Below are positions 37,507 through 53,419 of a DNA stretch of 64,000 bases, piece after piece. Numbering within the stretch: the stretch's first letter is position 1; every line of letters begins with the position of its first letter. Source of the DNA: a virus (taxonomy: Duplodnaviria; Caudoviricetes); IMG/VR virus record IMGVR_UViG_3300021963_000022; one strand, given 5' to 3'. The notes beneath the pieces were generated by a model. The model made no database searches. It had not been told where the DNA came from and saw nothing but the letters and a program-made list of their open reading frames with translations. Both the position numbers and the translations under genes were made by a program.

Positions 37507-38241
37507 ATGAAAGATATTTTAAAAGAGTTAGTATTATACACAAAAAAATTAGGTTTCATTAACCTAATCAAAATTACAGGTACAGATAAAGATGTTACTA
37601 TCAATGCTATTGCTGATAACAAAACAGTTATTGTTAATGGTTTGATGAAGCAACCTGTACCGGGCTTTGATGGTGTATTTGGTATGCCTAACTTAGGCAA
37701 ACTTGATACTATCTTAAACTTAGATGTATATGATGAACTAAGTAACATTACAGTACAACCTAAGATTGAAGATGACGGTACTAGTGTTCCCGGTACTATT
37801 CACTTTGAAACAGTAAACAAAGACTTTGTTAACGATTATCGTTTGATGAGTAAGTCAGTTGTATCAGAGCAAATCAAGTCAGTAATTTTCAATGGTACAG
37901 TTTGGAATGTTGAATTCGAACCAACTATTGTAGGTATTCAACGTTTACGCCGTCAGTCTCAAGCTAATAGCGAAGAAGAATCTTTTATGACAAAAACTGA
38001 GAACGGTGATCTAAAGATTTACTTTGGTGATCATAGTACACACTCGGGTAACTTTATTTTTCAACATTCAGTTAATGGAACACTAAATAAAAGTTGGAGG
38101 TGGCCTATTAAAGAATTCTTAGCAATCGTAGATTTACCCGGCGATAAGAAGATTCGTTTTAGTGACCAAGGTGCGTGTGAGATTGTTATCGACAATGGCA
38201 CAAGCGTATATCAATATCTTTTCCCAGCACAAACAAAATGA
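37507..38241 (+). CDS. Probable sliding clamp (processivity factor)
   Basis: 244 aa with a two-domain beta/alpha pattern; directly after polB; clamp loader is in the same window. Confidence 0.6.
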   Translation: MKDILKELVLYTKKLGFINLIKITGTDKDVTINAIADNKTVIVNGLMKQPVPGFDGVFGMPNLGKLDTILNLDVYDELSNITVQPKIEDDGTSVPGTIHFETVNKDFVNDYRLMSKSVVSEQIKSVIFNGTVWNVEFEPTIVGIQRLRRQSQANSEEESFMTKTENGDLKIYFGDHSTHSGNFIFQHSVNGTLNKSWRWPIKEFLAIVDLPGDKKIRFSDQGACEIVIDNGTSVYQYLFPAQTK

Positions 38242-38972
38242 CAATTAAAAGTATTTCAGGCGGAGTGGGTGTAGTAGTTAACGGCGGAACACCCGCATAT
38301 CCCGTCATAGACATGAAAGAAGTTAGCGCCGGTCTAGTTAGATATAATACGGATCACCTAGAAGTTTTTGATGGTACTGCTTGGAAGCCTCTTGGTTGGT
38401 CTGATTGTAACGTTGATTTGTCTAATCCTGCTATGGATTTACTATCCTGGGTACGTGAGAAGATGATTGAAGAACAATCAAAGGATACTACTAGTGTATT
38501 GTCTCCTGAAGCTATTGACTTACTAACATGGGTCAAGGCTAAAAGACATGAAGAAGAAAATGGTGTAAGTTTAATTACACCTGAGATGGAAGAACTGTTT
38601 GCTTGGGTTAGACTTAAGAAACAGGAAGATGATATCTTAGCACGTAAACGTCAGGAAGAAGAAGCGCAGAAAAGAAAACAAGCTGATTTGCGTAGACTTA
38701 TGGAAGAAGAAGCTAGAAAATCAATGTTGATTAAACAGGAAATTAAACCCGTACCTGTTCTATTTCCAGAGCCTGTACAACAGCCTGTACAACCTGTACA
38801 AGAGTTTGAGCCTGAGGTGATTGAAGAAGTAGTATCTGAAGTAGTTGAAGAAGTTATTCCAGAAACAACTACAAAAGCAACACCCAAAACAAAGAAAAAG
38901 AAAAAGATTGAACCAGTAGTGGTTGTAGTTGAGAAACCAAAAGAGATTCCACCAGAAGACAGGATGTGGTAA
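38238..38972 (+). CDS. Hypothetical protein, paralogue of the next gene, with 3 internal helical repeats
   Basis: RYNTDHLEVFDG..W; three L.xxx.DLL.WV(R/K)xKxxEE repeats. Confidence 0.65.
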   Translation: MTIKSISGGVGVVVNGGTPAYPVIDMKEVSAGLVRYNTDHLEVFDGTAWKPLGWSDCNVDLSNPAMDLLSWVREKMIEEQSKDTTSVLSPEAIDLLTWVKAKRHEEENGVSLITPEMEELFAWVRLKKQEDDILARKRQEEEAQKRKQADLRRLMEEEARKSMLIKQEIKPVPVLFPEPVQQPVQPVQEFEPEVIEEVVSEVVEEVIPETTTKATPKTKKKKKIEPVVVVVEKPKEIPPEDRMW

Positions 38973-39340
38973 TGATAAAAAGTATTCAGACTAATGGTCC
39001 GTTCTTAAGTGTAGCAGGTGGCTATCCATCTGCTACATATATCAGTAATGGTAGTGGACCAGGTGTAGGTAATATGCGATATAACCCCAACAGTCAAAAC
39101 ATTGAAGTATTTGATGGCAGTATTTGGGTTATTATGCAATCTAGTAATGCTTATATTAGTTTAGACCATGAAGCAGTTATATTGTTAGAATGGGTACGTA
39201 AGAAGCGTGATGAGGATCTTGAAGTAGAACGATTAGCAGAAACTAATTCAACTATCAAGGACCTTGTAAATCAAGTTAAAGAAAAACAAGAACAAATTCG
39301 TATTGTTCAAGCACTCGTAAAAGAAGAAGTAAAAGTTTAA
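38972..39340 (+). CDS. Conserved phage hypothetical protein
   Basis: MRYNPNSQNIEVFDGSIW...LLEWVRKKRDE. Confidence 0.7.
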   Translation: MIKSIQTNGPFLSVAGGYPSATYISNGSGPGVGNMRYNPNSQNIEVFDGSIWVIMQSSNAYISLDHEAVILLEWVRKKRDEDLEVERLAETNSTIKDLVNQVKEKQEQIRIVQALVKEEVKV

Positions 39341-40896
39341 TGGAACAAGTAAATCTATCAAATCATCACAAAGATGATTGGGCGTTATTCCTACCAGCAG
39401 TCAGTAGCTTCTATATCTCTGGCTTAGGTAAGCAACGTAAAGGTGAAGAGTATTTTGAACAATCTCGTATACCTGCAGGCTTTAACAATGATGTAGAAAA
39501 ACTAAACTTTCTTAATAGCAAAGAAGGTCTCTATTATTATAAATGGGGCTTGTACTCTGCTGGTCATGCTAACTTAGATACTACTAAAGACGATCCTAGT
39601 GAATCAATCATTAGAGAACGTGAAGCTGGTACATTCATGTTGGGCGACTCTGGTGGATTTCAAATTCTTAAAGGTCAATGGCCGGCTGATTGGAAAGATC
39701 CTAACTGTCCTAAAGCTTTAGAAAAACGTCAAATTGTTTTGAAGTGGATGGATACATACATGGACTATGGTATGTGTTTAGATGTACCTAGTCAATCATT
39801 CTTAAACAAACCTGCTATCAAACTTCATGGCATTCATAACATCGAAGAAGCTATTACTGCTACACATATTAATAACGAATACTTTATTAACAATCGTTCG
39901 GGTAAGTGTAAGTTCTTAAATGTATTGCAAGGTACTACACATACTGAAAGTGATTCATGGTACAACGAAATGAAAAAGTATTGTGATCCAAACATCTATC
40001 CAGACAATCACTTTAATGGTTGGGCGTTTGGTGGCCAGAATAAAATTGATGTTGACTTGATGTTACGTAGATTTGTTGATATTGTATATGACGGATTGTT
40101 ACAAGAAGGTAAACATGATTTGGTTCACTGTTTGGGTGTATCAATCTTAGAGTATGCTGTATTGTTTACTGATATTCAAAAAGCTATTCGTAAGTATCAT
40201 AACCCAAGTTTGAAGATTACGTTTGATTGTGCAAGCCCATTCTTTAGTGCGGCCAAAGGACTTGCTTACTTTAATACAAACATTGAACATAATCAGAAGT
40301 GGTCATATCAAATGGAAAAGACTGCTGAGAAGAAGTCTTATGCTACTGATAATCGGACGTTTATTGATGCTGTTTTGGCTGATGGTATCCATAAACAGTT
40401 TACAAATAGTCCAGTAACTGATAAACTACTTATTAGAGATTTGTGTTATAGAGGGATAGGATTCTTAGGACAACATAACAAAGAAACAAAAACTAGCTGG
40501 GATACACTTAGCTATACATTGTTACAAAGTCATAATGTCTATACTCATATCAATGCTGTGCAAGAAGCTAATCGTAGATATGAGCAAGGAATTCATCCAG
40601 CAATGGTTAGAAATAAAAATACAGGTTTAACCTTTGGTCAGTTGATTGATAGTATTTTTGCATGTAAAACTAAACAAGAAAGTTTAGATATCATTACACA
40701 GTATGAACTATTCTGGACGCAAATGCAATCAGGTAGTCAAGGATTTAGTGGTAAGAAAACTATCAATTCACGTACACAATATAAAGAACTTTTTACAGAA
40801 GAAGAATCAGATTCTGAACTATATTTGTTAGAAGATATTAAACCTAACAAATATTCTTCTAATGAAAAGTTTAACGAACTATTTACACTTGAATAA
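39340..40896 (+). CDS. dpdA: tRNA-guanine-transglycosylase-fold protein, probable DNA 7-deazaguanine transglycosylase (DpdA-like)
   Basis: LGDSGGFQ, MCLDVP, NVLQG, GWAFGG, VHCLG; clustered with folE/queD/queE. Confidence 0.8.
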   Translation: MEQVNLSNHHKDDWALFLPAVSSFYISGLGKQRKGEEYFEQSRIPAGFNNDVEKLNFLNSKEGLYYYKWGLYSAGHANLDTTKDDPSESIIREREAGTFMLGDSGGFQILKGQWPADWKDPNCPKALEKRQIVLKWMDTYMDYGMCLDVPSQSFLNKPAIKLHGIHNIEEAITATHINNEYFINNRSGKCKFLNVLQGTTHTESDSWYNEMKKYCDPNIYPDNHFNGWAFGGQNKIDVDLMLRRFVDIVYDGLLQEGKHDLVHCLGVSILEYAVLFTDIQKAIRKYHNPSLKITFDCASPFFSAAKGLAYFNTNIEHNQKWSYQMEKTAEKKSYATDNRTFIDAVLADGIHKQFTNSPVTDKLLIRDLCYRGIGFLGQHNKETKTSWDTLSYTLLQSHNVYTHINAVQEANRRYEQGIHPAMVRNKNTGLTFGQLIDSIFACKTKQESLDIITQYELFWTQMQSGSQGFSGKKTINSRTQYKELFTEEESDSELYLLEDIKPNKYSSNEKFNELFTLE

Positions 40897-40905
40897 GGAG
40901 ATAAC

Positions 40906-41118
40906 ATGCCATATCGTAGTAGAATCAGTATATTAAAAGAATCACATCGTTTGATTGATGAACAGATTATAGTAATGGAAGCTAACAACGCTGATCCGTT
41001 GAAGATTTCAGAAATGAAAAAACAAAGACTAATTTACAAAGACGAGATCCGAAGAATGGAACGTATTCAATGGGAACATGATCATGATACTGTCGACCTC
41101 AGCGATGATGACTATTAA
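40906..41118 (+). CDS. DUF465/YdcH-like coiled-coil protein
   Basis: LKESHRLIDEQI...MKKQRLIYKDEI pattern; AGGAG SD. Confidence 0.6.
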   Translation: MPYRSRISILKESHRLIDEQIIVMEANNADPLKISEMKKQRLIYKDEIRRMERIQWEHDHDTVDLSDDDY

Positions 41119-41311
41119 ATCAACTATGACTGCCGAAACCGAAGAATCTACTATTTCATTTAGAGGTGGTTCTGATGAAATGCTACGTATAGCAAAAGAT
41201 GGGTTTTATGTACGTGGAGTTCGGGTAAATCAGGATGACAAAGAAGCTGAAATAGTGTATAATACATTTCATCAGTGGTTAACATGGGCCTCACTTAACA
41301 GGAAATATTAA
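41078..41311 (+). CDS. Hypothetical protein (start uncertain)
   Basis: ORF fills the operon gap. Confidence 0.5.
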   Translation: MIMILSTSAMMTIKSTMTAETEESTISFRGGSDEMLRIAKDGFYVRGVRVNQDDKEAEIVYNTFHQWLTWASLNRKY

Positions 41312-41763
41312 TGGAACAACATATTCAAGCAATGAATGAAAAACGTGTACGCATTAAGCATTATGCTAAACGTATGATTTTTGTAACATTTCAAAAAGAG
41401 GGTATTCATATGTACCCGGCAGCGGCAACAGATCCAGCACTCGCAACAGGTGATGAATATGATGTTAGCTTTTTAGGAACTCCACATCGTCACATCTTTC
41501 ATTTTAGTGTGGCGATTGAAGTATTTCACAATGACAGGGATATTGAATTCATTCAATTTAAACGCTGGTTAGAAAATCTCTACAAAGGCGGAACACTTGA
41601 ATTGAATTACAAGAGTTGTGAAATGATTAGTGATGACCTCTATGAGCAAATCGCTACTCGCTATCCCGATCGTAACATTGAGATTACTGTCAGTGAAGAC
41701 GGTGAGAACGGTGCAACGATTTATTATAATACAAGCAAACCTTATCAACAACTCGCTATTTAA
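41311..41763 (+). CDS. QueD-like T-fold protein, DpdL-like (predicted CDG decarboxylase)
   Basis: FLGTPHRHIFHF (LxxxHRHxF), DRDIEFIQFK, SCEMIS, VSEDGENGA; a second QueD paralogue next to dpdA. Confidence 0.65.
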   Translation: MEQHIQAMNEKRVRIKHYAKRMIFVTFQKEGIHMYPAAATDPALATGDEYDVSFLGTPHRHIFHFSVAIEVFHNDRDIEFIQFKRWLENLYKGGTLELNYKSCEMISDDLYEQIATRYPDRNIEITVSEDGENGATIYYNTSKPYQQLAI

Positions 41764-41774
41764 AGGAAAATACA

Positions 41775-41981
41775 ATGGCAAAACATACTTTTCAACCTAA
41801 TCCTCGTGTACGTCAAATTTTCGAGGATCTAGAAAAGTACTTGGCATTCTGCCAAGATTATGGCTACAAATATGACGAATCCTCATTATACGATATGCGT
41901 AGTTACGTATATCGTCAACACACTAAACAGTTATCTGGAAAGTGGGCTAAAGATTCATGGGCTGATGCAATCGTCCGATGA
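41775..41981 (+). CDS. Hypothetical protein
   Basis: 68 aa, AAGGA SD. Confidence 0.6.
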   Translation: MAKHTFQPNPRVRQIFEDLEKYLAFCQDYGYKYDESSLYDMRSYVYRQHTKQLSGKWAKDSWADAIVR

Positions 41982-43156
41982 GAAAATTATTCTATATGGG
42001 TCTCGAACCTTACAAAGCACGTTACACTCTACAATTACAAGAGTGGAATGAACGTGTATTTAAACGTAGAGGTATTAACTATGTTATCGTGCCTGGCGAA
42101 ACATTAAGTGATGACCAAGCTATTGTTACAGGTCAAGTACTAGACGCACATGGACGTACATACTTTGGTATGAGTCAACTAATGAATCTAGTACGTATGA
42201 TGAAAGCAGGAGAGTGTAGTGACCAAGATATTATCTATTTTGAAGATATGTTTCAACCAGGTATTGAGAGTTTGCCGTATATACTTAAGCAAGTACCTAC
42301 TAATCTTCGTCCTCGTATATTTGTCCGTTGTCTTGCTCAGTCAATCGATCCGGATGATTTCGTACATGTATGGGGAATGAGTGAATTCATGGGTCTCTAT
42401 GAGAAGATGGTAGATAGTTTTGTTGATGGCGTACTAGCTACTAACGAAGAAATGATTATGCATATGAAGATTGCAGGCTGGAAGTCACCTCTATATAACA
42501 TTAGTGGTCTTGCATTCGGTAAGAATGAGGTGCGTAGTCGTGTATTAGGACCATTGAAACCCTTTGAAGAACGTACTATGCGTGTAGCATTTAGTGCAAG
42601 ATGGGATCAAGAAAAACAACCTGATTTCTATATGGACTTAATTGAAGCGTTTTATTCTAGGTCAAATAAAAAAATTGAATTCTGTGTATTCAGTGGTAGT
42701 AAGTTAAAAAGCAATAACGAAAGTTATATGGAACGTACTCGCAAACTACAGAGCGAGGGTAAACTTGTCATCTATGAAGACTTGGAAAAGAATGATTACT
42801 ATGACCTATTAAACGATACTAGAGTATTGTTTAACTGTGCTTTACAAGACTGGGTAAGTAATACAGTTAGCGAAGCAGACACATTAGGTTGTAATGTATT
42901 ATATCCGGCATATCGTAGTTTCCCGGAAACGTTTGCTAATGATAATACACGACTGTATGTTCCTTGGAGTATTGATGATGCTATGTCTAAATTGCAAAAT
43001 TTGTTAATGGCACCGCACAATTTTCAAGGTCGTATTAGTGATTATACTGATAAAACTATTGACCGTATCTGTGATATCATGGAAGGCAATGGAGAACAAT
43101 ATTTACGCATGGGTAGTGACTATCGTAAATACACAAGAGAAACAAAATACTCATAA
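41978..43156 (+). CDS. GT-B fold glycosyltransferase (GT4-like)
   Basis: FSARWDQEKQPDF, VLFNCALQDWVSNTVSEA..LGCNVLYP...SFPE. Confidence 0.75.
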   Translation: MRKLFYMGLEPYKARYTLQLQEWNERVFKRRGINYVIVPGETLSDDQAIVTGQVLDAHGRTYFGMSQLMNLVRMMKAGECSDQDIIYFEDMFQPGIESLPYILKQVPTNLRPRIFVRCLAQSIDPDDFVHVWGMSEFMGLYEKMVDSFVDGVLATNEEMIMHMKIAGWKSPLYNISGLAFGKNEVRSRVLGPLKPFEERTMRVAFSARWDQEKQPDFYMDLIEAFYSRSNKKIEFCVFSGSKLKSNNESYMERTRKLQSEGKLVIYEDLEKNDYYDLLNDTRVLFNCALQDWVSNTVSEADTLGCNVLYPAYRSFPETFANDNTRLYVPWSIDDAMSKLQNLLMAPHNFQGRISDYTDKTIDRICDIMEGNGEQYLRMGSDYRKYTRETKYS

Positions 43157-43171
43157 CATAAAGGAAATAAC

Positions 43172-43366
43172 ATGAGCGCACATAACGATATTAACACACA
43201 TTTAGAAGCATACTTGACCGAACATGAAAAGTTTGATAAAGGTAATGCGGCTGCAGGAACACGTGCCCGTAAAGCATTAGCTGAGATGGCTAAGGCAATT
43301 AAAGCACGCCGTAATGAAATTACAGCAGAAAAAGCCGCACGTGCAGAAGCAAAAGCTAAGGCTTAA
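43172..43366 (+). CDS. Histone H1-like (Hc1-like) small basic protein
   Basis: KFDKGNAAAGTRARKALAEMAK..K.RR.EI. Confidence 0.7.
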   Translation: MSAHNDINTHLEAYLTEHEKFDKGNAAAGTRARKALAEMAKAIKARRNEITAEKAARAEAKAKA

Positions 43367-43368
43367 TC

Positions 43369-43599
43369 ATGGCAACTCGCAAGAAAATTCAACTTGAAGA
43401 AGTTAGTTCATTGCCAGACTCAATACAAGTAGGTAGTCACTTAACTGTGTCTACCTACTCTGATGGTCGTACTGAATTGGAATGGGATTGGGATGCATTA
43501 GTTAAAGAGGTACGTGAAGCCTGCGCTAGTGTTGAACTTGCCAATACAAAGCCCGCAGTTAAAGCTAAATCAAAAAAATCAGTTGCTAAATCAAAGTGA
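43369..43599 (+). CDS. Hypothetical protein
   Basis: 76-aa ORF. Confidence 0.55.
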   Translation: MATRKKIQLEEVSSLPDSIQVGSHLTVSTYSDGRTELEWDWDALVKEVREACASVELANTKPAVKAKSKKSVAKSK

Positions 43600-43630
43600 T
43601 AAATACTTGTGTTACACAACGGTAACACAA
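43598..43630 (+). promoter_or_regulatory. Late-like promoter GATAAATA followed by a perfect 9-bp hairpin in the folE leader
   Basis: TTGTGTTAC-ACAACG-GTAACACAA at 43607-43630. Confidence 0.5.
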
Positions 43631-43665
43631 TGTCAAAACAAAACCATCACAAAGGAAGGTTATCT

Positions 43666-44352
43666 ATGAGTTATAATAAAACAAAAACAGATCCAGAGTT
43701 GGGTCAAAAAGTTCATCTACATCTATTAAATATGGGCGTAGAAACGCCAATTGACGATACAATTGATTTAGGTGATCGTAAGGATCGTATTGAAAAGATT
43801 GAAGGTCATTTCAAAGCTATTATGGAAACAATGGGTCTAGACCTAGATGATGATAGTCTTATTGAAACACCTAAACGTGTTGCCAAGATGTATGTAAATG
43901 AAATCTTTTGGGGACTTGATTATGAGGCATTCCCTAAATGTACAACAGTTAACAACAAGATGCAATACAACGAAATGGTTGTAGAGCGTAATGTTAATGT
44001 TCAATCTAACTGCGAACATCACTTTGTAGTGATTGATGGATTGGCTACTGTAGCTTATGTCCCTAAACAAAAAGTATTAGGGCTTAGTAAGATCAACCGT
44101 ATTGTAGAATATTTTAGCAAAAGGCCTCAAATACAAGAGAGGTTAACAGAGCAGATATTTCACACCTTACAGTTCATCCTTGAGACAGAAGATGTTGCAG
44201 TTATGATTGATGCACAACATTATTGTGTAAAATCACGTGGGGTAGAAGATACAGGTAGTAGTACTGTTACTTGTCGCCTAGGTGGAGGCTTTAAAACTGA
44301 TCCAGCGGCAAGACAAGAGTTCTTACAGATTGCTAATAAAGGTTGCAAATGA
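43666..44352 (+). CDS. folE: GTP cyclohydrolase I
   Basis: [49 protein letters not shown]; AAGGAAGG SD before ATG 43666. Confidence 0.95.
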
Positions 44353-44540
44353 AATTTAAATTAGGTGATATGGTTAAAAAAGTGTCTGGTTCAGAATGGC
44401 ACGGTAAAGTAGTGGGTACATATTCAACTGAGTTAACGCCTGAAGGATATGCAGTTGAGAGTCATACAGAAAAAGGGTCTGTGCAAATATACCCCGCTAA
44501 GGCTCTTGAACTTTGGGAGATTAATAATGGGAATGCGTAA
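44349..44540 (+). CDS. dfrB: R67/DfrB-type (type II) dihydrofolate reductase homologue
   Basis: [47 protein letters not shown] matches R67 DHFR, including [10 protein letters not shown] and the VQIY active-site motif; ATGA overlap with folE. Confidence 0.85.
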
Positions 44541-44763
44541 ACAAATGGACTACAATAGTGTGCATCATCAAATCTATATGAGTGGTGTAGAACTTCATAG
44601 TAATTACAATGATGGATACAACCAGTTTGAAATCAAAAAAGATTTACATCGTATTAAATGGTTACTTGATGAGATTATGGCTGACGCACCTACATTTACA
44701 GGTGAAGATGAATTCTTAAAAGAACACGAACAAACCAAGATGTGGAGAACACTTTCAAAATGA
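44527..44763 (+). CDS. Hypothetical protein
   Basis: ATG 44527 within ORF 44449..44763. Confidence 0.55.
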
Positions 44764-45233
44764 TTTTTAATCACATTAAAGAACTAAAAGCACAAGGTAA
44801 AAAGATTGGCATTACTTTCAGTACATTTGATTTGCTTCACGCAGGTCACGTTGCTATGTTAAGTGAGGCGAAGAATCATTGCGATTATTTAATTTGTGGC
44901 TTGCAAACTGATCCAACCATTGATCGTCCTGATACAAAGAATAAACCCATTCAAAGTATTGTAGAACGACAGATCCAACTTGCGGCTTGTCGCTATGTTG
45001 ATGAGGTAGTTGTATATCAAACTGAACAGGACCTTATTGACCTACTACTTATTCTTCCCTTAGATGTTCGCATTTTGGGTGTAGAATATGCTGAAAAAGA
45101 GTTTACCGGAAGATATGAAGGTGGGGAACGAGGTATTGAACTTGTATTCAATGGTCGTGACCATAGTTTCAGTAGTTCAAGTTTAAGAAAACGGGTAGCT
45201 GATGCCCAGATTATTAACACTCTTAATAAATAA
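44760..45233 (+). CDS. Cytidylyltransferase (TagD / glycerol-3-phosphate CTase-like)
   Basis: GITFSTFDLLHAGH, GLQTD, RILGVEY, HSFSSSSLR. Confidence 0.85.
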   Translation: MIFNHIKELKAQGKKIGITFSTFDLLHAGHVAMLSEAKNHCDYLICGLQTDPTIDRPDTKNKPIQSIVERQIQLAACRYVDEVVVYQTEQDLIDLLLILPLDVRILGVEYAEKEFTGRYEGGERGIELVFNGRDHSFSSSSLRKRVADAQIINTLNK

Positions 45234-45300
45234 CTATAGCGGTCTTTGGACATCATCCCGCTTTACAAATTCTGCTGCCTATGCTATAATACAACATAGG
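45225..45300 (+). promoter_or_regulatory. Composite queD control region: late motif, hairpin, sigma70 promoter and SD-sequestering hairpin
   Basis: AATAAATA 45225-45232; AGCGG/CCGCT stem; TTTACA-17-TATAAT at 45262-45290; CCTATG/CATAGG stem overlapping AGGAG. Confidence 0.55.
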
Positions 45301-45308
45301 AGAAATTC

Positions 45309-45791
45309 ATGGCAAACAAAAAATTCTTTTCAACAAAAACATACAGACAAATAGGTCCTGTCGCTTATCGTCAATGGCGTGCTGACAGTCATTGTAACTT
45401 AATTCATGGCTACGCTATGAGTTTTCACTTTGAGTTTGAAGCTGATACACTAGATGCCCGCAACTGGGTAACTGACTTCGGTGGACTACGACCTCTCAAA
45501 GACAAACTAGAAGAATGGTTTGACCATACTCTACTAGTCGCACAAGATGACCCAATGCGTGAACATCTATTAGAACTAGGTCGATTGAAGCTAGCAAAGA
45601 TTACAGAAGTAGAACGTACTGGCTGTGAAGGTATTGCTGACTTCTTATACGAATATGTTAATACAATCTTTTTACCTAACTGCGGTAGTGAAGAAGCAAA
45701 GCGTGTATGGTGCTGTAGAGTAGAGGTTCGTGAGACTGATAGCAATATGGCAGGTAGAGGTGGTCATAGAGAAGATGGGGAGTTTGCATAA
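45309..45791 (+). CDS. queD: 6-carboxy-5,6,7,8-tetrahydropterin synthase
   Basis: HCNLIHGY, WVTDFG, FDHTLL, GCEGIA, VEVRET. Confidence 0.88.
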   Translation: MANKKFFSTKTYRQIGPVAYRQWRADSHCNLIHGYAMSFHFEFEADTLDARNWVTDFGGLRPLKDKLEEWFDHTLLVAQDDPMREHLLELGRLKLAKITEVERTGCEGIADFLYEYVNTIFLPNCGSEEAKRVWCCRVEVRETDSNMAGRGGHREDGEFA

Positions 45792-46222
45792 TGTTTAGTG
45801 TAATTAAATTCTTTTGGTTAGTGAGTCGTTCATCCTGGAACATCATGAACCCCAATCTAAATCCGTTGCGACATGCACCTGTATATATCAAATATTTTCT
45901 TAGCATCCTACTGGGGTGTTTTTGGAGCCTAGCATTTGGAATCTACATTGGTGAACTGTTAACAATTGGCTACAATATGCTAGGTCACATTGCCATCATC
46001 AGCATGGTATTTGCTACTTGGGCTGTATTTCGTTCAGTAGAAAATACTTATGGTCCACGTGGTGGTACAGTAGATTGGTTACGCATGCCAGACTATAGTA
46101 GTCGGTGTGATGAACTTACTGAAGATCAGCGTTTTGCTAAAATCCAAGAATGGAACAATCGGAATGTTTGGAACGAACCTAAACATTCTGAAAAAGATAA
46201 AGAAACTTATTACGGAGCATAA
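45791..46222 (+). CDS. Membrane protein of unknown function
   Basis: Two hydrophobic segments after MNPNLNPLRH. Confidence 0.6.
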   Translation: MFSVIKFFWLVSRSSWNIMNPNLNPLRHAPVYIKYFLSILLGCFWSLAFGIYIGELLTIGYNMLGHIAIISMVFATWAVFRSVENTYGPRGGTVDWLRMPDYSSRCDELTEDQRFAKIQEWNNRNVWNEPKHSEKDKETYYGA

Positions 46223-46224
46223 AC

Positions 46225-46326
46225 GTGACCATTAATGAAATTATTGCTATAGTACTAATGGTAGCCGTAGTGGGCATAGTGCTATGGGATATGAACAGGA
46301 ACAAAGAAAATAAACCAAAGGAATAA
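46225..46326 (+). CDS. Small single-TM peptide (33 aa, not in track)
   Basis: GTG start with GGAG SD; VTINEIIAIVLMVAVVGIVLWDMNRNKENKPKE. Confidence 0.45.
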   Translation: MTINEIIAIVLMVAVVGIVLWDMNRNKENKPKE

Positions 46327-46361
46327 AGAATTCTACGCAGAGAATTTTAAAAGGAAAATAA

Positions 46362-47012
46362 ATGTTAGAAACAATTTGCGATACATTAGTTGAAGCATAT
46401 AGACGCAACTGGATTACTAGTCGTGATGGCAATGTAAGTATTCGTCATCACGACCGTGATCACTTTTACATCACTCCTAGTGGTGTCCGTAAGCAGACAA
46501 TGCAACCTGATCAGTTTAAAAAGATTGGCATTGAACAAGGCTACTATGACCAACCTCCTAAACCATACTATTCTTGGAAAGAACTGGCATATACAGACAT
46601 TAGTGAGAAGCTAAAACCTAGCGGAGAAATACCACTGCACTTCGGCTTACAACGAGAAATGGGGCAACACAGTGATGATGTAAGAGTTGTAGTTCATTTA
46701 CACCCTACTTATTGTATTGCGGCAATGCACGCCGGTATTGATTTAAGCACTATTAGCAAAGCGTTTCCAGAATTGAATCGCTACACTAAGGTAGCACCCA
46801 ATGTAGGAGACGTGCCTCCGATTAGTCAAGAGCTTGCAGACCAGTGCCATAAGATGTTACAATTAGACAATAAAGGCAATATTGTTTACGACATTGTAGG
46901 TATCAAAGGACACGGAGTTGTTGCTATAGATACAAGTCCATGGCGTGCTTTTGAACACATTGAACGATTAGAACATATTTGTCAAATCGTATTAGCATCA
47001 AATAAATTTTAA
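46362..47012 (+). CDS. Class II aldolase/adducin family protein
   Basis: DGNVSIR, YITPSG, KPSGEIPLH, VHLHPTY, GIKGHGVV. Confidence 0.88.
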   Translation: MLETICDTLVEAYRRNWITSRDGNVSIRHHDRDHFYITPSGVRKQTMQPDQFKKIGIEQGYYDQPPKPYYSWKELAYTDISEKLKPSGEIPLHFGLQREMGQHSDDVRVVVHLHPTYCIAAMHAGIDLSTISKAFPELNRYTKVAPNVGDVPPISQELADQCHKMLQLDNKGNIVYDIVGIKGHGVVAIDTSPWRAFEHIERLEHICQIVLASNKF

Positions 47013-47022
47013 GGAGAAAACT

Positions 47023-47712
47023 ATGTTTGAAACAACTTATGAAAATGGAACGTCATATCGTTCCGCAAGCGAAATCAATTCAGCAATGGGTCGTGTCTAT
47101 GGACATATGAGTCTTGCTGTTATTGTATCAATGTTTGTTAGTTACTTTGTAGGCACTAGTCCAGAGTTATTGGCATTCTTTTTTACAGGCTGGATTAAAT
47201 GGATTGTAATATTATCACCACTTGCGGCTATCTTTGGTGTTGCTATGGTACTAGCCAATAACCCAAGTAAAAGTGTAGCACAACTATGCTTACATGGTTT
47301 TGCGGCATTAATGGGATTGAGCTTTGCTACAATCTTTGCTGTATTCACTATGGGTAGTATTGTGTCAGCGTTTATGGGAGCCTCGATACTTTTTGGTGTA
47401 ATGAGTGGATATGGCTACTTTACCAAACAGAGTTTAGACAATGTTGGTAAGTTTATGTTTGTCGGCCTAATTGCTATCATTATTGCTAGTATTGTTAATA
47501 TCTTTATTGGTAGTACAGTTATGCAAATGGTTATCAGTGCATTAGCTATTATTATCTTTTTAGGACTAACTGCTTATGACACACAAAAGATCCGTGAAGA
47601 ACTTAGTATGGAAACTAGTGATAGTGCAGAAGTGCGAGGTGCATTAACATTATATATGGACTTCATTAACTTGTTTATTAACCTATTACAACTGTTTGGT
47701 GATAGAAAATAA
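47023..47712 (+). CDS. Bax inhibitor-1/YccA family membrane protein
   Basis: Seven TM segments; LTAYDTQKI; ALTLYMDFINLFINLLQLFG. Confidence 0.9.
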   Translation: MFETTYENGTSYRSASEINSAMGRVYGHMSLAVIVSMFVSYFVGTSPELLAFFFTGWIKWIVILSPLAAIFGVAMVLANNPSKSVAQLCLHGFAALMGLSFATIFAVFTMGSIVSAFMGASILFGVMSGYGYFTKQSLDNVGKFMFVGLIAIIIASIVNIFIGSTVMQMVISALAIIIFLGLTAYDTQKIREELSMETSDSAEVRGALTLYMDFINLFINLLQLFGDRK

Positions 47713-47722
47713 TTAACAAAAC

Positions 47723-47914
47723 ATGAACAGTTTGGAAAAAATCTGGTCTAGAGCAACAGGTCATCTAATGGGTAATACTGATGATGACCGACCCGATGTA
47801 CCTATTCTTACATTACGGGAAGCAAAAATTGCATTGTTCCTAAAGACTTTCTGGGTGGTACTACATGTGATAACATGTTGTTTTATTATAGCAAATACTT
47901 TACATCATTGGTAA
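47723..47914 (+). CDS. Small membrane protein
   Basis: 63 aa with a C-terminal hydrophobic helix. Confidence 0.55.
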   Translation: MNSLEKIWSRATGHLMGNTDDDRPDVPILTLREAKIALFLKTFWVVLHVITCCFIIANTLHHW

Positions 47915-47917
47915 TAT

Positions 47918-48124
47918 ATGAACAAAAAAATCAAAGAACTAGCAGAACAATGCGGTTTTAGACCAGGTGATAGCATATACGATAGAAATCAATCATTTGA
48001 TATTGAGAAGTTTGCAGAACTTCTAATCAGAGATTGTGCAAAGCAAGTTAATCACATTTACAAACAAGGTGGCGGCACATGGGGTGAAGTCATTCTTAAA
48101 ACTTACAATATAAAAATCAAATGA
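47918..48124 (+). CDS. Small phage protein of the 'IKELAEQ...EKFAELI' family
   Basis: Paralogous to 49546 and 61384. Confidence 0.6.
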   Translation: MNKKIKELAEQCGFRPGDSIYDRNQSFDIEKFAELLIRDCAKQVNHIYKQGGGTWGEVILKTYNIKIK

Positions 48125-48969
48125 GTCATTTAAAAGTAGCAGAATTATTTTATAGCATTCAAGGTGAAGGTAGATACATGGGTGTACCTTCAGTATTTCT
48201 CAGAACATTTGGCTGTAACTTCAAGTGTGCTGGATTTGGTATGCCTAAAGGTGAACTAAGTCGTGAGGTAGAAGACATTGCCGCACGTTCACATTACTAT
48301 GATGATTATAAGAAACTTCCTTTAGTTTCTACAGGTTGTGACAGTTATGCAAGTTGGGATCCTAGATTTAAACATCTTAGTCCTGTACTAACAACAGATA
48401 GTATTGTAGATAGCATTATGGATATGATTCCGCACAAACGTTGGATGGATGAGCATCTTGTTATTACAGGCGGTGAACCTTTATTAGGTTGGCAACGTGC
48501 TTATCCTGACTTGCTTTCACATGAAAAGATGAGGAGTCTTAAAGAGATTACATTTGAAACAAATGGTACTCAAGAACTAAGCCAAGACTTTTCAATATAT
48601 CTACAACAGTGGAAGATAAACAGAGAAAAAAATGCACTTACCTTTAGTGTAAGTCCTAAACTAAGCATCAGTGGTGAGAAGTGGGAAGAAGCTATTCGCC
48701 CTGAGATTATTCATCAATATGAAAGTGTTGGCTTTGTTTATCTCAAGTTTGTTATTGCTACTAAAGAGGATGCACTTGAAGCTGATGACGCAGTAAAAGA
48801 GTTTCGTAGTAGAGGATTCAGAGGTCCTGTATACTTTATGCCATGCGGTGGTGTAGAGTCTGTGTACAACTTGAATGCAAAGAATGTAGCAATTGAAGCA
48901 ATGAATCGTGGTTATCGTTACAGTGATAGACTACAAGTACCTTTATTTAAGAATGAGTGGGGTACATGA
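48121..48969 (+). CDS. queE: 7-carboxy-7-deazaguanine synthase (radical SAM)
   Basis: VAELFYSIQGEG, VFLRTFGCN, GCDS, VITGGEPLL, FETNGT, SVSPKL, RLQV. Confidence 0.9.
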   Translation: MSHLKVAELFYSIQGEGRYMGVPSVFLRTFGCNFKCAGFGMPKGELSREVEDIAARSHYYDDYKKLPLVSTGCDSYASWDPRFKHLSPVLTTDSIVDSIMDMIPHKRWMDEHLVITGGEPLLGWQRAYPDLLSHEKMRSLKEITFETNGTQELSQDFSIYLQQWKINREKNALTFSVSPKLSISGEKWEEAIRPEIIHQYESVGFVYLKFVIATKEDALEADDAVKEFRSRGFRGPVYFMPCGGVESVYNLNAKNVAIEAMNRGYRYSDRLQVPLFKNEWGT

Positions 48970-49151
48970 TGGCACAAATAGTAATTACAAGAACACAGTT
49001 TGAAAAACTGAAAGAAGTATTTGAGATGTATGATCTTGATAGAGTGATTTGGACAGAAGATTCAACTAATGGTATAGGTTCAACTACTACCATTGAGTTT
49101 GATCCTAAATCTACTGTTAAGATGGATATTACTGATTTAGAAAGTTGGTAA
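48966..49151 (+). CDS. Hypothetical protein
   Basis: Overlapping stop/start in the operon. Confidence 0.55.
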   Translation: MMAQIVITRTQFEKLKEVFEMYDLDRVIWTEDSTNGIGSTTTIEFDPKSTVKMDITDLESW

Positions 49152-49375
49152 TGCCATTAGATCAAGTTCAATCATATGACTATTTCTATGAAAAAATAAT
49201 AGGTACTGAACTTAAGTTTGCTTGGTTACCACAAACTTGTGATATATCGGGTAAGCGTATTTGGTTTAAATGGGGCTATCGCATTACTAGAATTATTACA
49301 GGTCCGGGCGAATCTATCTTTGAATATAGATGGCATGAAAAGAATACCCATATTATATGGAAGCTAACGAGGTAA
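49151..49375 (+). CDS. Hypothetical protein
   Basis: FAWLPQTCDISGKRIW motif. Confidence 0.55.
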   Translation: MPLDQVQSYDYFYEKIIGTELKFAWLPQTCDISGKRIWFKWGYRITRIITGPGESIFEYRWHEKNTHIIWKLTR

Positions 49376-49379
49376 ATAT

Positions 49380-49553
49380 ATGTATGAATTAAGATATCTT
49401 GTCCGAAAAGGTTGGGACGGACTAGAAAAAGTGTTACAATATAGAACACAAATTGAAGTAACTGATTATAGTACAACCACTGATAAAGGTAGTTTTACTA
49501 AAAAACGTGAATGGACTGAATGGAAAGATGTACCGGTAGTAAAAGATGAATGA
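49380..49553 (+). CDS. Small hypothetical protein (57 aa, not in track)
   Basis: MYELRYLVRKGWDGLEKVLQYRT...WTEWKDVPVVKDE; GAGG SD. Confidence 0.6.
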   Translation: MYELRYLVRKGWDGLEKVLQYRTQIEVTDYSTTTDKGSFTKKREWTEWKDVPVVKDE

Positions 49554-49767
49554 TAAACTAAAAGAACTGGTAGCGGAATGCTACAATCCTTATTCAGACT
49601 TTGATTATGAAAAGTTTGCTAATCTAATTATTGAAGATGTACTCAGTATTATGGGTGACCCTAAAAACTATAACAGATGCACATATACTAATTTTGATTT
49701 AAATACCGCTTTGTGTATATCAACAGAACTATCTGATAAAATTAAAAAACTTTATGAGAACGTATGA
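49546..49767 (+). CDS. Small phage protein of the 'LKELV...EKFANLI' family
   Basis: Paralogous to 47918. Confidence 0.55.
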   Translation: MNDKLKELVAECYNPYSDFDYEKFANLIIEDVLSIMGDPKNYNRCTYTNFDLNTALCISTELSDKIKKLYENV

Positions 49768-51088
49768 TAAACGTATTGGCTTCTTAGTAAGCTATCAAAC
49801 ACTTATCCCGCACGGGGGTATAGGTCAATTTGCTAAAAGCTTTTGTGAATTGATGGATAAGCACAATATCAAAGTTGATATCATTACTGATAAAGAACCC
49901 AAAGATAATGAGTTTGTCAAATCACTTAAAGCAAACATAATTGCTCCCACTGATTCACTATCATATACTACTCATAGTAATATCTTTATGTACGGTGATA
50001 CATTTTGCTATGAAAGAATGGCTAACTTTCGTAATAGTATCATTAAAGCATTAGAGCATAACTTGTATGATGCATTTGTATGCAACACCTACGAAACTGT
50101 ACAAGTAGCAAGCACTATGGGACTTGAAGATTGTATTCAAATCATTGCTTATACACACTTAGAAAGTCAAATCTTTAACGATACTAAAAATCCTTTTTTA
50201 AACAATACCAATGTGATGATGCGTCAACAATTAAGCACAACAAACATTGATATAGGAACTCAAAGTAAATTTAATCAAGTACACTTAGATGAATCATCCT
50301 ATCATCTTCCTATACCTATTACTGAGCGTGGATTGCTTGAAGAACATCACAAACAACGTGAAGGTATACTATTTGTCGGTCGTTGGGAAGAAGGTAAAAA
50401 TCCTGAGTTGTTCTTAGACTTGATTGAACAAACAAAGTTGCCTGCAAAAGTAATGACTAGTGCAAACGGTGCAAAGAAGTTTGAAGATAGACTAAAGAAG
50501 ATCGGTGTACCATATGAAATCAAAGTGGGCATCATCGGTAAAGAGAAAGTTGACTTTATGACAAGTGCTAGAATTTCATTCAACCCTAGCATTGTTGAGA
50601 GTTATGGTATGGCATTCTACGAACAACATATTCAAATGCCTACATTAGTATTAGAGAATCAGCGTTGGACTAATAACTTTAATAAAGATTTCTTTTACAC
50701 TTGCACTAGGAAAGATATGGCAAGTAAAGCAAAAGAGTTGTATGATATTTTTGAAAAAGCAGAAAGATGGTATAACTTAGGATCATTGAAACACGCACAA
50801 GAACAAGAAGCTACAGTCTTTCACAAATGGAATACATGCTTTAATGATTTTGAGCCTAAACAATCCAACAGCAATACTGCTAAAATTTTACAAAATGAAA
50901 CCATTAAGTATAATGATTTTATTGAAGGATTGGGACGTAGTATAATTTGTATTGATGACTGCCGTTCTGCATTGACTAATAAACATAAGTTTCGTACAAT
51001 CTATACAGATGAAGATACTTACTTAACAAAGGATCCTAGCTTTGAACCAGTTGAAGAAACAAGTCAATCGCTATTTACATTCGCATGA
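49754..51088 (+). CDS. GT-B fold glycosyltransferase (GT4-like)
   Basis: PHGGIGQF, ILFVGRWEEGKNPE, FNPSIVESYGMAFYE. Confidence 0.8.
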   Translation: MRTYDKRIGFLVSYQTLIPHGGIGQFAKSFCELMDKHNIKVDIITDKEPKDNEFVKSLKANIIAPTDSLSYTTHSNIFMYGDTFCYERMANFRNSIIKALEHNLYDAFVCNTYETVQVASTMGLEDCIQIIAYTHLESQIFNDTKNPFLNNTNVMMRQQLSTTNIDIGTQSKFNQVHLDESSYHLPIPITERGLLEEHHKQREGILFVGRWEEGKNPELFLDLIEQTKLPAKVMTSANGAKKFEDRLKKIGVPYEIKVGIIGKEKVDFMTSARISFNPSIVESYGMAFYEQHIQMPTLVLENQRWTNNFNKDFFYTCTRKDMASKAKELYDIFEKAERWYNLGSLKHAQEQEATVFHKWNTCFNDFEPKQSNSNTAKILQNETIKYNDFIEGLGRSIICIDDCRSALTNKHKFRTIYTDEDTYLTKDPSFEPVEETSQSLFTFA

Positions 51089-51930
51089 AAAAAGTTTTAA
51101 TTACAGGTAGTTCAGGATATATCGGTTCACATCTATGTAAGATGCTAGCCGGTAAATACGAAGTTCATGGACTTGATATTAATCCACCACAAACATTTGT
51201 AGATAAATTCTATGACCAAAACATCAATCGACTATTTGAAGCTGAACACGAATATGATGCAGTAATTCATTTGGCTGCATTGGTTCGTGTAGGTGAGAGT
51301 GAACTTATGCCAATCAAGTATTATATTACTAACTTGAATGGTACTATGAACATACTTAATCGTGTGAAAACAAAAAACTTTATCTTTGCTAGTACTGGTG
51401 CCGCACAAGATTGTACTAGTGCCTATGGTATCAGTAAACTTGCCGCTGAAGGTGTTGTTAAAGAATTCTCTACTCACCATCGTCAACAAGATTATACTAT
51501 TTTTAGATTCTATAATGTTGTAGGCAGTGATGGGTTTCCACCAACAAACCCAGATGGATTAATGTATAAACTGTTTGAAGCGACCGACACAGGAGTATTT
51601 ACTATCTATGGTAATGACTATACAGAATCAACTGACGGTACATGTGTCAGAGACTATGTTCATGTGAATGAAATATGTGAAGCTTTGAAAGAAGCTATTG
51701 AAAACCCATCTAATCAAATAGAATGTTTAGGGCATGGTGTTGGTCATACAGTTAAAGAGATTGTTAATAAGTTTCAACAAGTTAATAATGTTGATTTTGA
51801 AGTGACGTACGGCCCAAGAAGAAAGGGTGACTTACCTAGTTCTGTACTAGAAAATGTATCACCCTATATGCGTAATCTCTATACAATGGATCAGTTACTT
51901 ACCTTTAGCGTCCCGGAAAAAACTGAGTAA
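51085..51930 (+). CDS. NAD-dependent nucleotide-sugar epimerase/dehydratase (GalE-like)
   Basis: ITGSSGYIGSH, HLAA, ASTG, YGISK (YxxxK), FRFYNV, VRDYVHV. Confidence 0.9.
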   Translation: MKKVLITGSSGYIGSHLCKMLAGKYEVHGLDINPPQTFVDKFYDQNINRLFEAEHEYDAVIHLAALVRVGESELMPIKYYITNLNGTMNILNRVKTKNFIFASTGAAQDCTSAYGISKLAAEGVVKEFSTHHRQQDYTIFRFYNVVGSDGFPPTNPDGLMYKLFEATDTGVFTIYGNDYTESTDGTCVRDYVHVNEICEALKEAIENPSNQIECLGHGVGHTVKEIVNKFQQVNNVDFEVTYGPRRKGDLPSSVLENVSPYMRNLYTMDQLLTFSVPEKTE

Positions 51931-53419
51931 AGAAATTACTATTAGCACCTGCATCGATGATAACAGGTTTACCTTGATATAATCCCCAGTTTGCTTTTCT
52001 ATTAAGATCACCTAACTCAACCTCATATGATGAACTTAAATCAACCAACTTGTTTGCGTATTCATTAGCAGTGTCAATCTGTTCTTCTGACTTGCCTTTC
52101 TTCTTCATATGAGCAATCAATTGTTGATAATTATATAGTTTACTCTTACCAGACATTGCAGTAGCCAATTGAACTATTTCATTTAATGAATCAACACCCA
52201 TCAGTTCAGCAAGTTGTTTCTCAGTAGCTTTTTGTGCTAACTCAGTGTGTATCCAAGTAGGTTCACGATTCTGTTTATCATAGTCAATCATAGGTATTAG
52301 TATACCAAGCTGACTAGCATATCCATCATCCAGTATATCTACTTCTACATTGTTTTGTACTAAACCCATTCTATTTTTAGCTATTTTAAGAACAGTAGGA
52401 CGACCTTCATATTCAATATCAGTAGCAATACGACTAGATCCACTACCAATACGTTTAGCACGTTCTAATGCATAACCTAGTCGTTGTTTGAATGTAGAGC
52501 CAGGGCTATATTGACTTGCATCCCAATCAGCTGGTAAGGGTGCTTCAGTTATTTCATTGTTCGTTTTTACGATAGGAGGAACCCAGTTGTATAGTTCTAT
52601 TCGTGGTGCACCGGATTCATCGTGATAATAATTCGCTTTAAACGAACCATCATATTTAATAACGTTTTGAATTTCTTTTGGATTGCCACCTGTTAATCTC
52701 TTAAATGCATCTATTGCTTTTTGTTTTGTTAAGCCAACTTTAGTGTCACCGGTATCACCAATCGGCAAGATTAAGCCATCAGGTGTAACACTCCATAATG
52801 TATATCCATCTGGATTGTCTCTCCTTGCTACTATTTGAACTTCATTTGGCTTATAGTAATTTTTAGAATTCAATGGTGGTTTAGCTAACTTACGTGAGAA
52901 CGTGCCTTTATTAGTAGGATCATCTCTCATTGTAGTTAATTCTAAACCACTATCATTAATCAATTTCAATAGACCTTCTGGTACTTTATTCATTAGTTCT
53001 TTACGTATCTGTATGCCTAAAACATATGGTTTCTTAACAGGGATACCTATACCTCTTGGATGATAGATACGTTCTTCTGTTTCTTGTTTATACATTGGAT
53101 TACTAGCAGTAGGACCAGTACCGTCTGCTTGATTATAGAATTGCATATAAGAGAATGGCATTACTTTGAATCCAGCTTGACGTAATGCATTCCTATCTAA
53201 CACAAGTTGAATACTGCCACCACCATATGGGAATCTATAATATTGATTTCTACTTGCACTGATTACTGGTATTTCCCAACCACCTTCTTCATCTGTATCA
53301 GATAAGTGCGGTTGTATTACACCTTTTCTGAGTATATTCCAGATTTGATTAGGTTGTGCTACACTATGATAAATGTAATCGCCACCAACTGCTTCAGCAA
53401 TAAATTCTTTTGCTCTCAT
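51905..53419 (-). CDS. Mosaic protein: N-terminal ADP-ribosyltransferase-like domain + C-terminal protein-kinase-like domain
   Basis: YIYHS...ILRKG...ISASR...ETEERI; after ITE|A come GSGSSR, VLKIAK, QNNVE, GDLNRKANWG and VIIDAG. Confidence 0.65.
   Translation of the reverse strand: MRAKEFIAEAVGGDYIYHSVAQPNQIWNILRKGVIQPHLSDTDEEGGWEIPVISASRNQYYRFPYGGGSIQLVLDRNALRQAGFKVMPFSYMQFYNQADGTGPTASNPMYKQETEERIYHPRGIGIPVKKPYVLGIQIRKELMNKVPEGLLKLINDSGLELTTMRDDPTNKGTFSRKLAKPPLNSKNYYKPNEVQIVARRDNPDGYTLWSVTPDGLILPIGDTGDTKVGLTKQKAIDAFKRLTGGNPKEIQNVIKYDGSFKANYYHDESGAPRIELYNWVPPIVKTNNEITEAPLPADWDASQYSPGSTFKQRLGYALERAKRIGSGSSRIATDIEYEGRPTVLKIAKNRMGLVQNNVEVDILDDGYASQLGILIPMIDYDKQNREPTWIHTELAQKATEKQLAELMGVDSLNEIVQLATAMSGKSKLYNYQQLIAHMKKKGKSEEQIDTANEYANKLVDLSSSYEVELGDLNRKANWGLYQGKPVIIDAGANSNFFTQFFPGR

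Follow-up and report, generated by a model that had tools for sequence, protein, structure and literature searches.

The window analyzed here is a 64,000-nucleotide stretch of IMG/VR record IMGVR_UViG_3300021963_000022, part of the genome of an uncultured giant (jumbo) T4-like phage from a freshwater lake. Between positions 39340 and 51930, where every gene lies on the + strand, the window carries a block in which genes for 7-deazaguanine modification of DNA are mixed with genes for sugar transfer. The former comprise a DpdA-like transglycosylase, a QueD paralogue that resembles DpdL, FolE, QueD, and QueE; the latter comprise two glycosyltransferases of the GT-B fold (GT1 and GT2), a nucleotidyltransferase, a class II aldolase, and a GalE-like epimerase. 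A first-pass annotation of the window had placed both sets in one same-strand block, and all of these genes are present, at the coordinates given below. The window also encodes a family B DNA polymerase (PolB) and clamp loader, PhoH, RNase H-like, and GP88-like genes. When the whole block was compared by megablast with 50,697 phage records, no match was obtained.

The first gene of the block (39340–40896) encodes a protein of 518 residues that matches no Pfam, PHROG, or NCBIfam model. Its AlphaFold2 (AF2) model has a pLDDT of 85.8 (21 homologues, down to 33% identity), and a Foldseek search of the PDB gave only TGT, ArcTGT, or DpdA structures among its best 50 matches, with the DNA preQ0 insertase 7ui4 among them (E ∼4e-07 and target TM ∼0.5 for these matches). 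Two motifs, DSGGFQ (residues 103–108) and FDCAS (residues 295–299), align with the same motifs of the DpdA type found in Acidovorax phage ACP17 and phage X1. They contain D103 and D296, which are invariant in 21 sequences of at least 33% identity and which we take to be the catalytic aspartates of TGT. Comparison with hhalign to DpdA of the ACP17/X1/BUCT-ZZ01 type gave a probability of 94.7% over the catalytic core, and the protein is 34% identical to EST35_0316 of Pseudomonas jumbo phage PA5oct. BLASTP found no similarity to CGPG_00065, the 259-residue DpdA3 of phage phiST, and a profile of the protein matched no PDB sequence; HMMER likewise detected no Pfam TGT domain in any phage DpdA3-like protein examined. 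From its modeled fold, the product is predicted to be a DNA-guanine transglycosylase of the DpdA/TGT type, belonging to a PA5oct-like class.

The gene at 41311–41763 encodes a QueD-like T-fold protein of 150 residues. In place of the CxxxHGH of QueD it has LGTPHRHIF (residues 55–63), which fits LxxxHRHxF, the signature of DpdL, as phiST CGPG_00067 was named (Cui, Hutinet et al., NAR 2023, PMC10516641). The same signature is present in the DpdL homologues of ACP17, X1, BUCT, Phosso, BCSR5, and phiST. The protein matches phrog_17812 at 8e-36, and by tblastn it is 62% identical to DpdL of PA5oct, 55% identical to the ACP17 homologue (E 8e-39), and 35% identical to phiST CGPG_00067 (E 2e-8). In phiST DNA, 2′-deoxy-7-deazaguanine (dDG) replaces all G, and a DpdL/dDG system has been predicted for relatives such as ACP17 (PMC10516641). 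The remaining core genes are readily recognized. FolE, a GTP cyclohydrolase I, lies at 43609–44352 (Pfam 5e-62; phrog_2197 4e-74). QueD, the 6-carboxytetrahydropterin (CPH4) synthase, lies at 45309–45791 (Pfam PTPS 1.4e-15; the QueD-like phrog_2389 7e-41); its motif CNLIHGY is of the CxxxHGY form common to the window, phiST, ACP17, and BUCT-ZZ01. QueE, a radical-SAM 7-carboxy-7-deazaguanine (CDG) synthase, lies at 48121–48969 (phrog_2076 1e-53; several NCBIfam QueE models at ∼1e-13). The folE stop is overlapped by an open reading frame (ORF) of 63–65 residues (44349–44540) that resembles dihydrofolate reductase of the DfrB (R67) type (NCBIfam trim_DfrB 2e-25, 88.5 bits against a 137-bit cutoff). 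This ORF overlaps another of 104 residues (44449–44763), and either frame may be the real one; in a phage, the coupling of FolE to a reductase of pterins or folate is unusual.

The first-pass annotation saw neither QueC nor QueF, and this absence was confirmed for the window: there is no SGGxDS PP-loop motif in any frame, and Pfam scans of 50 window ORFs identified no member of the QueC, QueF, or thymidylate-synthase families. The search was extended to a relative of 335 kb that is 95% complete and whose DpdA is 75% identical, and it too contained no QueC candidate and no QueF; for the rest of the phage's own genome, QueC is excluded only by proxy, through such relatives. Weak QueC matches in relatives proved to be matches to the N-terminal PP loop, one of them in a TilS-like ORF (VALSGGVDS...GHHLDD), and the only QueF matches obtained were cross-matches on FolE. 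One large relative (G001) encodes a TilS-like PP-loop protein of 202 residues upstream of PolB (L088:1468–2076); the window has no PP-loop ORF. A preQ1-I-like riboswitch considered ahead of queD (45225–45311) found no support at the Rfam level, with no preQ1 match at E ≤1 over 38900–52100, where the single Rfam match was a chance-level hit to COG2908. The DpdL-like gene thus occurs with DpdA, FolE, QueD, and QueE but without QueC. By homology, the core is a probable QueC-less, DpdL-type route to 7-deazaguanine, of a kind already described for phiST and predicted for ACP17. Because this gene set is of the phiST/ACP17 type, dDG or its 7-carboxy form (dCDG) would be the expected DNA base, in agreement with the earlier proposal that the genome carries one or the other.

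GT1 (41978–43156) follows dpdL closely. The two are separated by a conserved ORF of 68 residues (41775–41981) whose stop overlaps the GT1 start and which is found in almost all relatives of this clade (49–82% identity). GT1 gave a sub-threshold match to Glycos_transf_1. Its AF2 model (pLDDT 95.2, 53 homologues) has the two Rossmann domains of a GT-B fold, of the GT4 type, with Z scores of 27.3 to sucrose-phosphate synthase (6kih), 26.7 to MshA, and 26 to BshA. GT4 enzymes use an Arg/Lys pair to bind the donor diphosphate and have an E-x7-E motif in the C-terminal domain. Among 53 GT1 sequences, R208 and K213 are invariant and D291-x7-E299 is nearly so; given these conserved motifs, GT1 looks like an active transferase that uses nucleotide-diphosphate (NDP) sugars. 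We predict that it is a retaining glycosyltransferase of the GT4 type. In this clade, in Synechococcus phage BUCT-ZZ01, and in several distant lineages, GT1 ends in a basic-aromatic tail (DYRKHTRESKY, FRKHVARKKYE), which is missing from the GT1 types of ACP17, X1, PA5oct, and Phosso.

With 794 representative clusters among 1.84 billion proteins (E ≤0.001), the GT1 family is large. In 76 of 79 diverse IMG/VR loci, collected with a profile of distant members, dpdL lies near GT1, usually 300–700 bases upstream of it; one of the three loci lacking dpdL is cut at the contig end. A survey of the genomes of 185,579 species yielded three GT1 relatives, in cellular assemblies, and all three adjoin dpdL with FolE or QueE near. 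Searching the 50,697 phage records by tblastn returned six hits, all in dpdL phages, and GT1 stands beside dpdL in six cultured lineages: ACP17, X1/BUDD, BCSR5, PA5oct, Phosso, and BUCT-ZZ01. The arrangement varies in detail. GT1 sits between DpdA and DpdL in ACP17, and the BUCT-ZZ01 homologue, 64% identical, abuts DpdL. In Sinorhizobium phage Phosso (469 kb), the DpdL stop overlaps the glycosyltransferase start, and DpdL, the glycosyltransferase, FolE, and QueE lie beside PolB and the clamp, with a DpdA-like gene (28% identical) ∼170 kb away; here the DpdL-GT1 linkage is tighter than that to DpdA. Wherever the neighborhood could be inspected, the GT1 family was found only beside dpdL. Two distant members used as single queries against viral contigs found nothing, and the contigs that encode one distant member are short ones only. 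Co-occurrence with dpdA had been put forward as a check on the glycosyltransferases. For GT1 the tie is closer to DpdL than to DpdA.

The association does not run in both directions. A profile search found no GT1 in the DpdL phages phiST, RHph_I1_18, Ahp1, Bakedbeans, D479, and MA9V-3. DpdL of RHph_I1_18 is 65% identical to that of the window, yet RHph_I1_18 has no GT1, which suggests that GT1 has been gained or lost repeatedly. The existence of GT1-less DpdL phages indicates that GT1 is an optional addition downstream of DpdL and is not required for DpdL chemistry; such a pattern would be expected for a decorating enzyme.

The second glycosyltransferase, GT2 (49754–51088), is also predicted to be of the GT-B/GT4 type. 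Its match to Glycos_transf_1 (5e-05) is below the cutoff; R210, K215, and E282-x7-E290 are invariant across 19 sequences. GT2 ends in ...SQSLFTFA, which resembles the end of PolB (34705–37422, + strand; Pfam DNA_pol_B 1e-40), ...STFDELFTFG. The C-terminal tails of PolB (FDELFTFG), DpdA (FNELFTLE), and GT2 (SQSLFTFA) share an LF-type pattern that, among 312 stop-to-stop ORFs of the window (at least 50 residues, six frames), was found elsewhere only in an antisense ORF of 51 residues. An acidic linker followed by an xLFx[F/W/G] tail is present in all 18 distinct full-length GT2 orthologues (42–86% identity), and 110 of 128 PolB orthologues have the LF-type pattern. Where GT2-like paralogues lie outside clusters of deazaguanine genes (X1 WEM34366, Erwinia pEa13), they have no such tail. 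Furthermore, tail types co-vary by phage. BUCT-ZZ01 has the FF type (PolB TLDDFFS, DpdA SLDSFFD, GT2 SLEDFFND), X1 has the LFG type (PolB SLESLFG, DpdA SLEELFG), and ACP17 has the LFE type (PolB SLDDLFE, DpdA TLDELFE).

In RB69 and T4, the gp43 polymerase binds the gp45 clamp through its C-terminal tail (PMC3012046). Directly after PolB in the window is a gene (37507–38241, + strand) for a candidate gp45-like sliding clamp. Its product shares 29% identity (E 1e-30) with the sliding clamp annotated in Phosso, and its feature neighbors in the ESM Atlas are PCNA and gp45-slide_C clusters; a profile search against the PDB sequences returned no match. A predicted complex of this candidate with the last 50 residues of GT2 scored 0.11 against a mark of 0.32, and, having been run without controls, carries no weight either way. 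The last 55 residues of DpdA (464–518) are disordered in the AF2 model (pLDDT <50), as expected of a tether. In view of the per-phage co-variation, we read the tail as a probable sliding-clamp tether that would place GT2 on DNA, and we infer that DpdA and GT2 are both recruited to the clamp in this way. The GT2 tail is the strongest indication that a sugar step takes place on DNA. Searches for the shared pattern could also reveal other DNA-modifying enzymes of T4-like phages that are tethered to the clamp.

The start of the GalE-like gene (51085–51930) overlaps the GT2 stop. The product is a predicted NDP-sugar 4-epimerase of a short form, lacking ∼50 residues at the C terminus (Pfam Epimerase 2e-30; TIGR01179 GalE 3.5e-47, 160.9 bits against a cutoff of 262.3), in which the motifs GSSGYIGS (GxxGxxG) and YGISK (YxxxK) are intact. 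A homologue directly follows GT1 in 45 of the 79 loci, and in most lineages one of the two glycosyltransferase genes is followed by such an epimerase. The earlier suggestion that the sugar genes belong to the deazaguanine block is therefore supported for GT1, by its linkage to dpdL, for GT2, by its tail, and for the epimerase, which follows a glycosyltransferase; it is not supported for the aldolase or, as part of a polyol pathway, for the nucleotidyltransferase.

The nucleotidyltransferase (44742–45233; Pfam CTP_transf_like 8e-12) has its HxGH motif as HAGH. It reached 54.5 bits with TagD (1e-14, cutoff 165.4) and 81.2 bits with RfaE-II (6e-23, cutoff 181.5), and it is best described as a predicted member of the superfamily only. 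It is conserved within the cluster of this clade, is found in 16 of the 79 GT1 loci, and might supply one of the glycosyltransferases by activating a sugar phosphate. The class II aldolase (46362–47012; Pfam Aldolase_II 5e-28) is most like MtnB or FucA and falls below all cutoffs. It belongs to a variable slot between QueD and QueE (45791–47712), together with a membrane-like ORF of 143 residues and a full-length membrane protein of the Bax-inhibitor-1 family (47023–47712; Pfam Bax1-I 4e-53). These three ORFs are present in a minority of clade relatives only, and they are probably passengers. The aldolase had been grouped with the sugar-transfer genes; its position in a slot that relatives fill with other genes argues against a part in the pathway.

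Some relatives carry a further gene, for an XGPRT-like phosphoribosyltransferase, between FolE/QueD and QueE (for example, L084:7093–7554, and in 36 of the 79 loci). The window has no such gene (tblastn E above 3). The enzyme might recycle the guanine released by DpdA to GTP for FolE, or might make a deazaguanine nucleotide. Away from the block (12732–15791, 29793–30236, and 56637–57701), the window encodes a DnaJ with a J domain and a C-terminal domain, a ClpB-like chaperone of 758 residues with a double AAA arrangement, a ferritin-like protein, and a UvdE UV endonuclease.

We propose, with a probability of about 0.55, that the block is a two-layer DNA hypermodification module in which sugar transfer is added to a deazaguanine core. 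By homology to the described system, FolE, QueD, and QueE would convert GTP to CDG; QueC being absent, the DpdL homologue would decarboxylate CDG to 7-deazaguanine, and the DpdA-type transglycosylase would exchange guanine in phage DNA for this base. Linkage and sequence features suggest that the two GT4-type enzymes then attach one or more sugars to the deazaguanine, with the GalE-like epimerase, and possibly the HxGH nucleotidyltransferase, supplying both. GT1, the companion of DpdL, would probably act first, placing a sugar on dDG in DNA or on the base while this is still free. GT2, probably recruited by the clamp, would act on newly replicated DNA to add or extend a sugar. The sugar might be attached at N2, at O6, or at C7, which lies in the electron-rich pyrrole ring; attachment at C7 would give a C-glycoside, a possibility suggested by the lack of a side-chain hydroxyl on the base. 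The purpose may be protection from restriction and from defenses that recognize plain deazaguanine. By extension, the phages with GT1, including ACP17, X1, BCSR5, PA5oct, Phosso, and BUCT-ZZ01, may contain glycosylated 7-deazaguanine in their DNA, perhaps as a C7 C-glycoside, with DpdA and GT2 borne by the clamp; this wider statement is tentative, and we place it somewhat short of even odds.

Several observations weigh against this two-layer proposal. The main chemical one is that 7-deazaguanine has no hydroxyl or amine side chain, so that the acceptor would be unprecedented, or else the DpdL product is not what is assumed. DpdL is a proposed CDG decarboxylase giving 7-deazaguanine, in the source paper as here, and its heterologous expression with DpdA yielded no dDG in E. 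coli (PMC10516641). That a sugar ends up on the deazaguanine is, we stress, our inference. The closest structures to GT1 are small-molecule and lipid glycosyltransferases, among them pterin glucosyltransferases, and the T4 enzymes AGT and BGT are absent from its best 50 structure matches (Foldseek, VIA). GT1 orthologues have no clamp-type tail. GT2 is present in only 11 of the 79 diverse GT1 loci, and the C terminus of most DpdA orthologues of this clade is another acidic sequence (...DSDDAMSEILGE), which indicates that the clamp tether is not universal. Homologues of the nucleotidyltransferase were found in 98 phage records, which are of many kinds and mostly lack dpdL, and the gene contexts are unrelated. 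This spread, with scores below the cutoffs for both TagD and RfaE-II, also leaves the first-pass suggestion of a polyol decoration, built on a TagD-like enzyme, unsupported.

An alternative account is that the phage, like phiST, has plain dDG (or dCDG) in its DNA, and that the sugar genes are auxiliary genes of the early region for glycans of the host surface or the virion. In its favor, glycans and glycolipids are the usual products of GT4 enzymes, members of the nucleotidyltransferase family are common in phages that lack dpdL, and the slot with the aldolase, Bax-inhibitor, and membrane genes varies among relatives, as passengers do. A surface-glycan role does not, however, explain either the linkage of GT1 to dpdL or the tail of GT2. 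GT1 is beside dpdL in the 76 of 79 and three of three loci described above and in six cultured lineages whose genomes otherwise differ, and it is in no dpdL-less phage among the records searched by tblastn; the GalE-like gene tracks GT1, and the GT2 tail is that of the polymerase and co-varies with it by phage. We therefore consider plain dDG with unrelated glycan genes fairly unlikely. In another alternative, GT1 acts on a soluble intermediate, either free deazaguanine or a pterin. Its glycoside might serve as a transient handle or a carrier form, or might drain off a by-product; in that case the base that ends up in DNA might have no sugar, or the glycoside might be a metabolite. The tie of GT1 to DpdL and not to DpdA (the DpdA-like gene of Phosso being ∼170 kb distant), its lack of a clamp tail, and its structural neighbors, which act on small molecules (BshA, MshA, SenB, LmbT, and tetrahydrobiopterin glucosyltransferase), all agree with this. 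So does the finding that DpdL and DpdA of phiST and ACP17 gave no dDG in E. coli, for which missing partners were suspected (PMC10516641). However, phiST makes dDG without GT1, RHph_I1_18 has DpdL without GT1, and the clamp-type tail of GT2 points to a sugar-related step on DNA, so we judge the soluble-intermediate explanation quite unlikely. A pterin-glycoside pathway in the strict sense (FolE, a T-fold enzyme, and a glycosyltransferase, as for cyanobacterial biopterin glucoside) was rejected as the principal explanation because the DpdL-GT1 loci almost always hold QueE and DpdA as well.

The glycosyltransferases might instead decorate another modified base, such as hydroxymethyl- or hydroxycytosine or hydroxymethyluracil, as in the T-even phages, RB69, and RL38JI. 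Precedent favors this idea, since a pyrimidine hydroxyl is the acceptor in every DNA glycosylation described in the literature searched (PMC13326640) and T4 performs such a transfer with GT-B enzymes. The genes that would be needed to make the acceptor are another matter. The scanned window ORFs include no thymidylate-synthase homologue, and two large relatives have a single ThyA homologue each (350–357 bits) that keeps L143, D169, and N177 and hence is a canonical dTMP synthase by published criteria (PMC13326640). GT1, moreover, tracks dpdL and not any pyrimidine-modifying gene. Modification of another base, which the first-pass annotation had offered as an alternative, is weakened by these findings and seems to us highly improbable. 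The two-layer module, with the sugar on the deazaguanine, remains the explanation we prefer.

If the proposal is correct, these phages would provide the first example of a purine in DNA that bears a sugar, and with it a new nucleic-acid chemistry and a new handle against nucleases, CRISPR, and glycosylase defenses. It would also mean that modification is coupled to replication, with DpdA and GT2 riding the sliding clamp. The co-varying tails suggest how some DpdA enzymes reach full replacement of G, namely, by traveling with the clamp, and the link between GT1 and dpdL may bear on the inactivity of DpdL and DpdA in E. coli (PMC10516641). The prediction is testable now, as six cultured lineages have the GT1-dpdL pair and phiST, whose DNA contains pure dDG, is a natural control without GT1. 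We found no report of a glycosylated deazaguanine in DNA, or of a glycosyltransferase in a DpdL system, in a literature search that lacked many subscription papers.

Among known DNA modifications, the nearest parallels in enzymology are the glycosylated pyrimidines of the T-even phages, RB69, and RL38JI, which comprise glucosyl-5-hydroxymethylcytosine and arabinosyl- and hexosyl-5-hydroxycytosine (PMC13326640). As in the proposed pathway, phage glycosyltransferases acting in sequence take sugars from NDP-sugars and attach them to a non-canonical base after replication, and the phages encode enzymes that tailor the NDP-sugars. They differ in the acceptor: there a homologue of thymidylate synthase makes the pyrimidine hydroxyl that receives the sugar, whereas the base linked to the window is a 7-deazapurine. 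No report of clamp-binding tails on their glycosyltransferases was found in the literature searched. The nearest parallel in the product is the galactosyl- and mannosyl-queuosine of vertebrate tRNA (PMC10690763), in which a 7-deazaguanine derivative in a nucleic acid likewise carries a sugar. There, however, the nucleic acid is RNA and the sugar is on the cyclopentenediol hydroxyl of queuosine, which a phage without QueC and the later steps could not make.

Two cultured phages have clusters close to that of the window. PA5oct (Wroclawvirus) shares the order PolB, clamp-like gene, DpdA-like gene, GT1 homologue, DpdL, and QueE. Unlike in the window, there is no GT2, epimerase, or nucleotidyltransferase in this stretch, and its DpdA has a different tail. 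PA5oct DNA resists cleavage at restriction sites containing G (PMC12191111); the identity of its DNA base was not found in the literature searched. In BUCT-ZZ01 (Kyanoviridae), the cluster is unannotated and contains DpdA, DpdL, FolE, QueD, and QueE, as does that of the window. Among the cultured phages found, BUCT-ZZ01 alone has both glycosyltransferases (64% identity for GT1 and 38% for GT2), and its PolB, DpdA, and GT2 share one tail type. It differs in having DpdA of the ACP17/X1 class and an XGPRT-like gene, and no epimerase or nucleotidyltransferase was detected in the stretch examined.

The core itself is that of the dDG system of phiST and ACP17. FolE, QueD with CxxxHGY, QueE, DpdL with LxxxHRHxF, and a divergent DpdA of the TGT family are common to both, QueC and QueF are absent from both, and the genes lie among replication genes near the polymerase. 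The DpdA of the window differs in being longer and of the PA5oct-like class, with a likeness to the ACP17/X1 type that is detectable only at the profile level. phiST has no GT1 homologue, its DNA holds plain dDG, and the main text describing it contains no word starting with "glycosyl" (PMC10516641). To the phiST/ACP17 core, the window cluster adds GT1, GT2, the GalE-like epimerase, and the nucleotidyltransferase. What is new beyond that core is a proposed dedicated glycosyltransferase layer together with polymerase-type tails.

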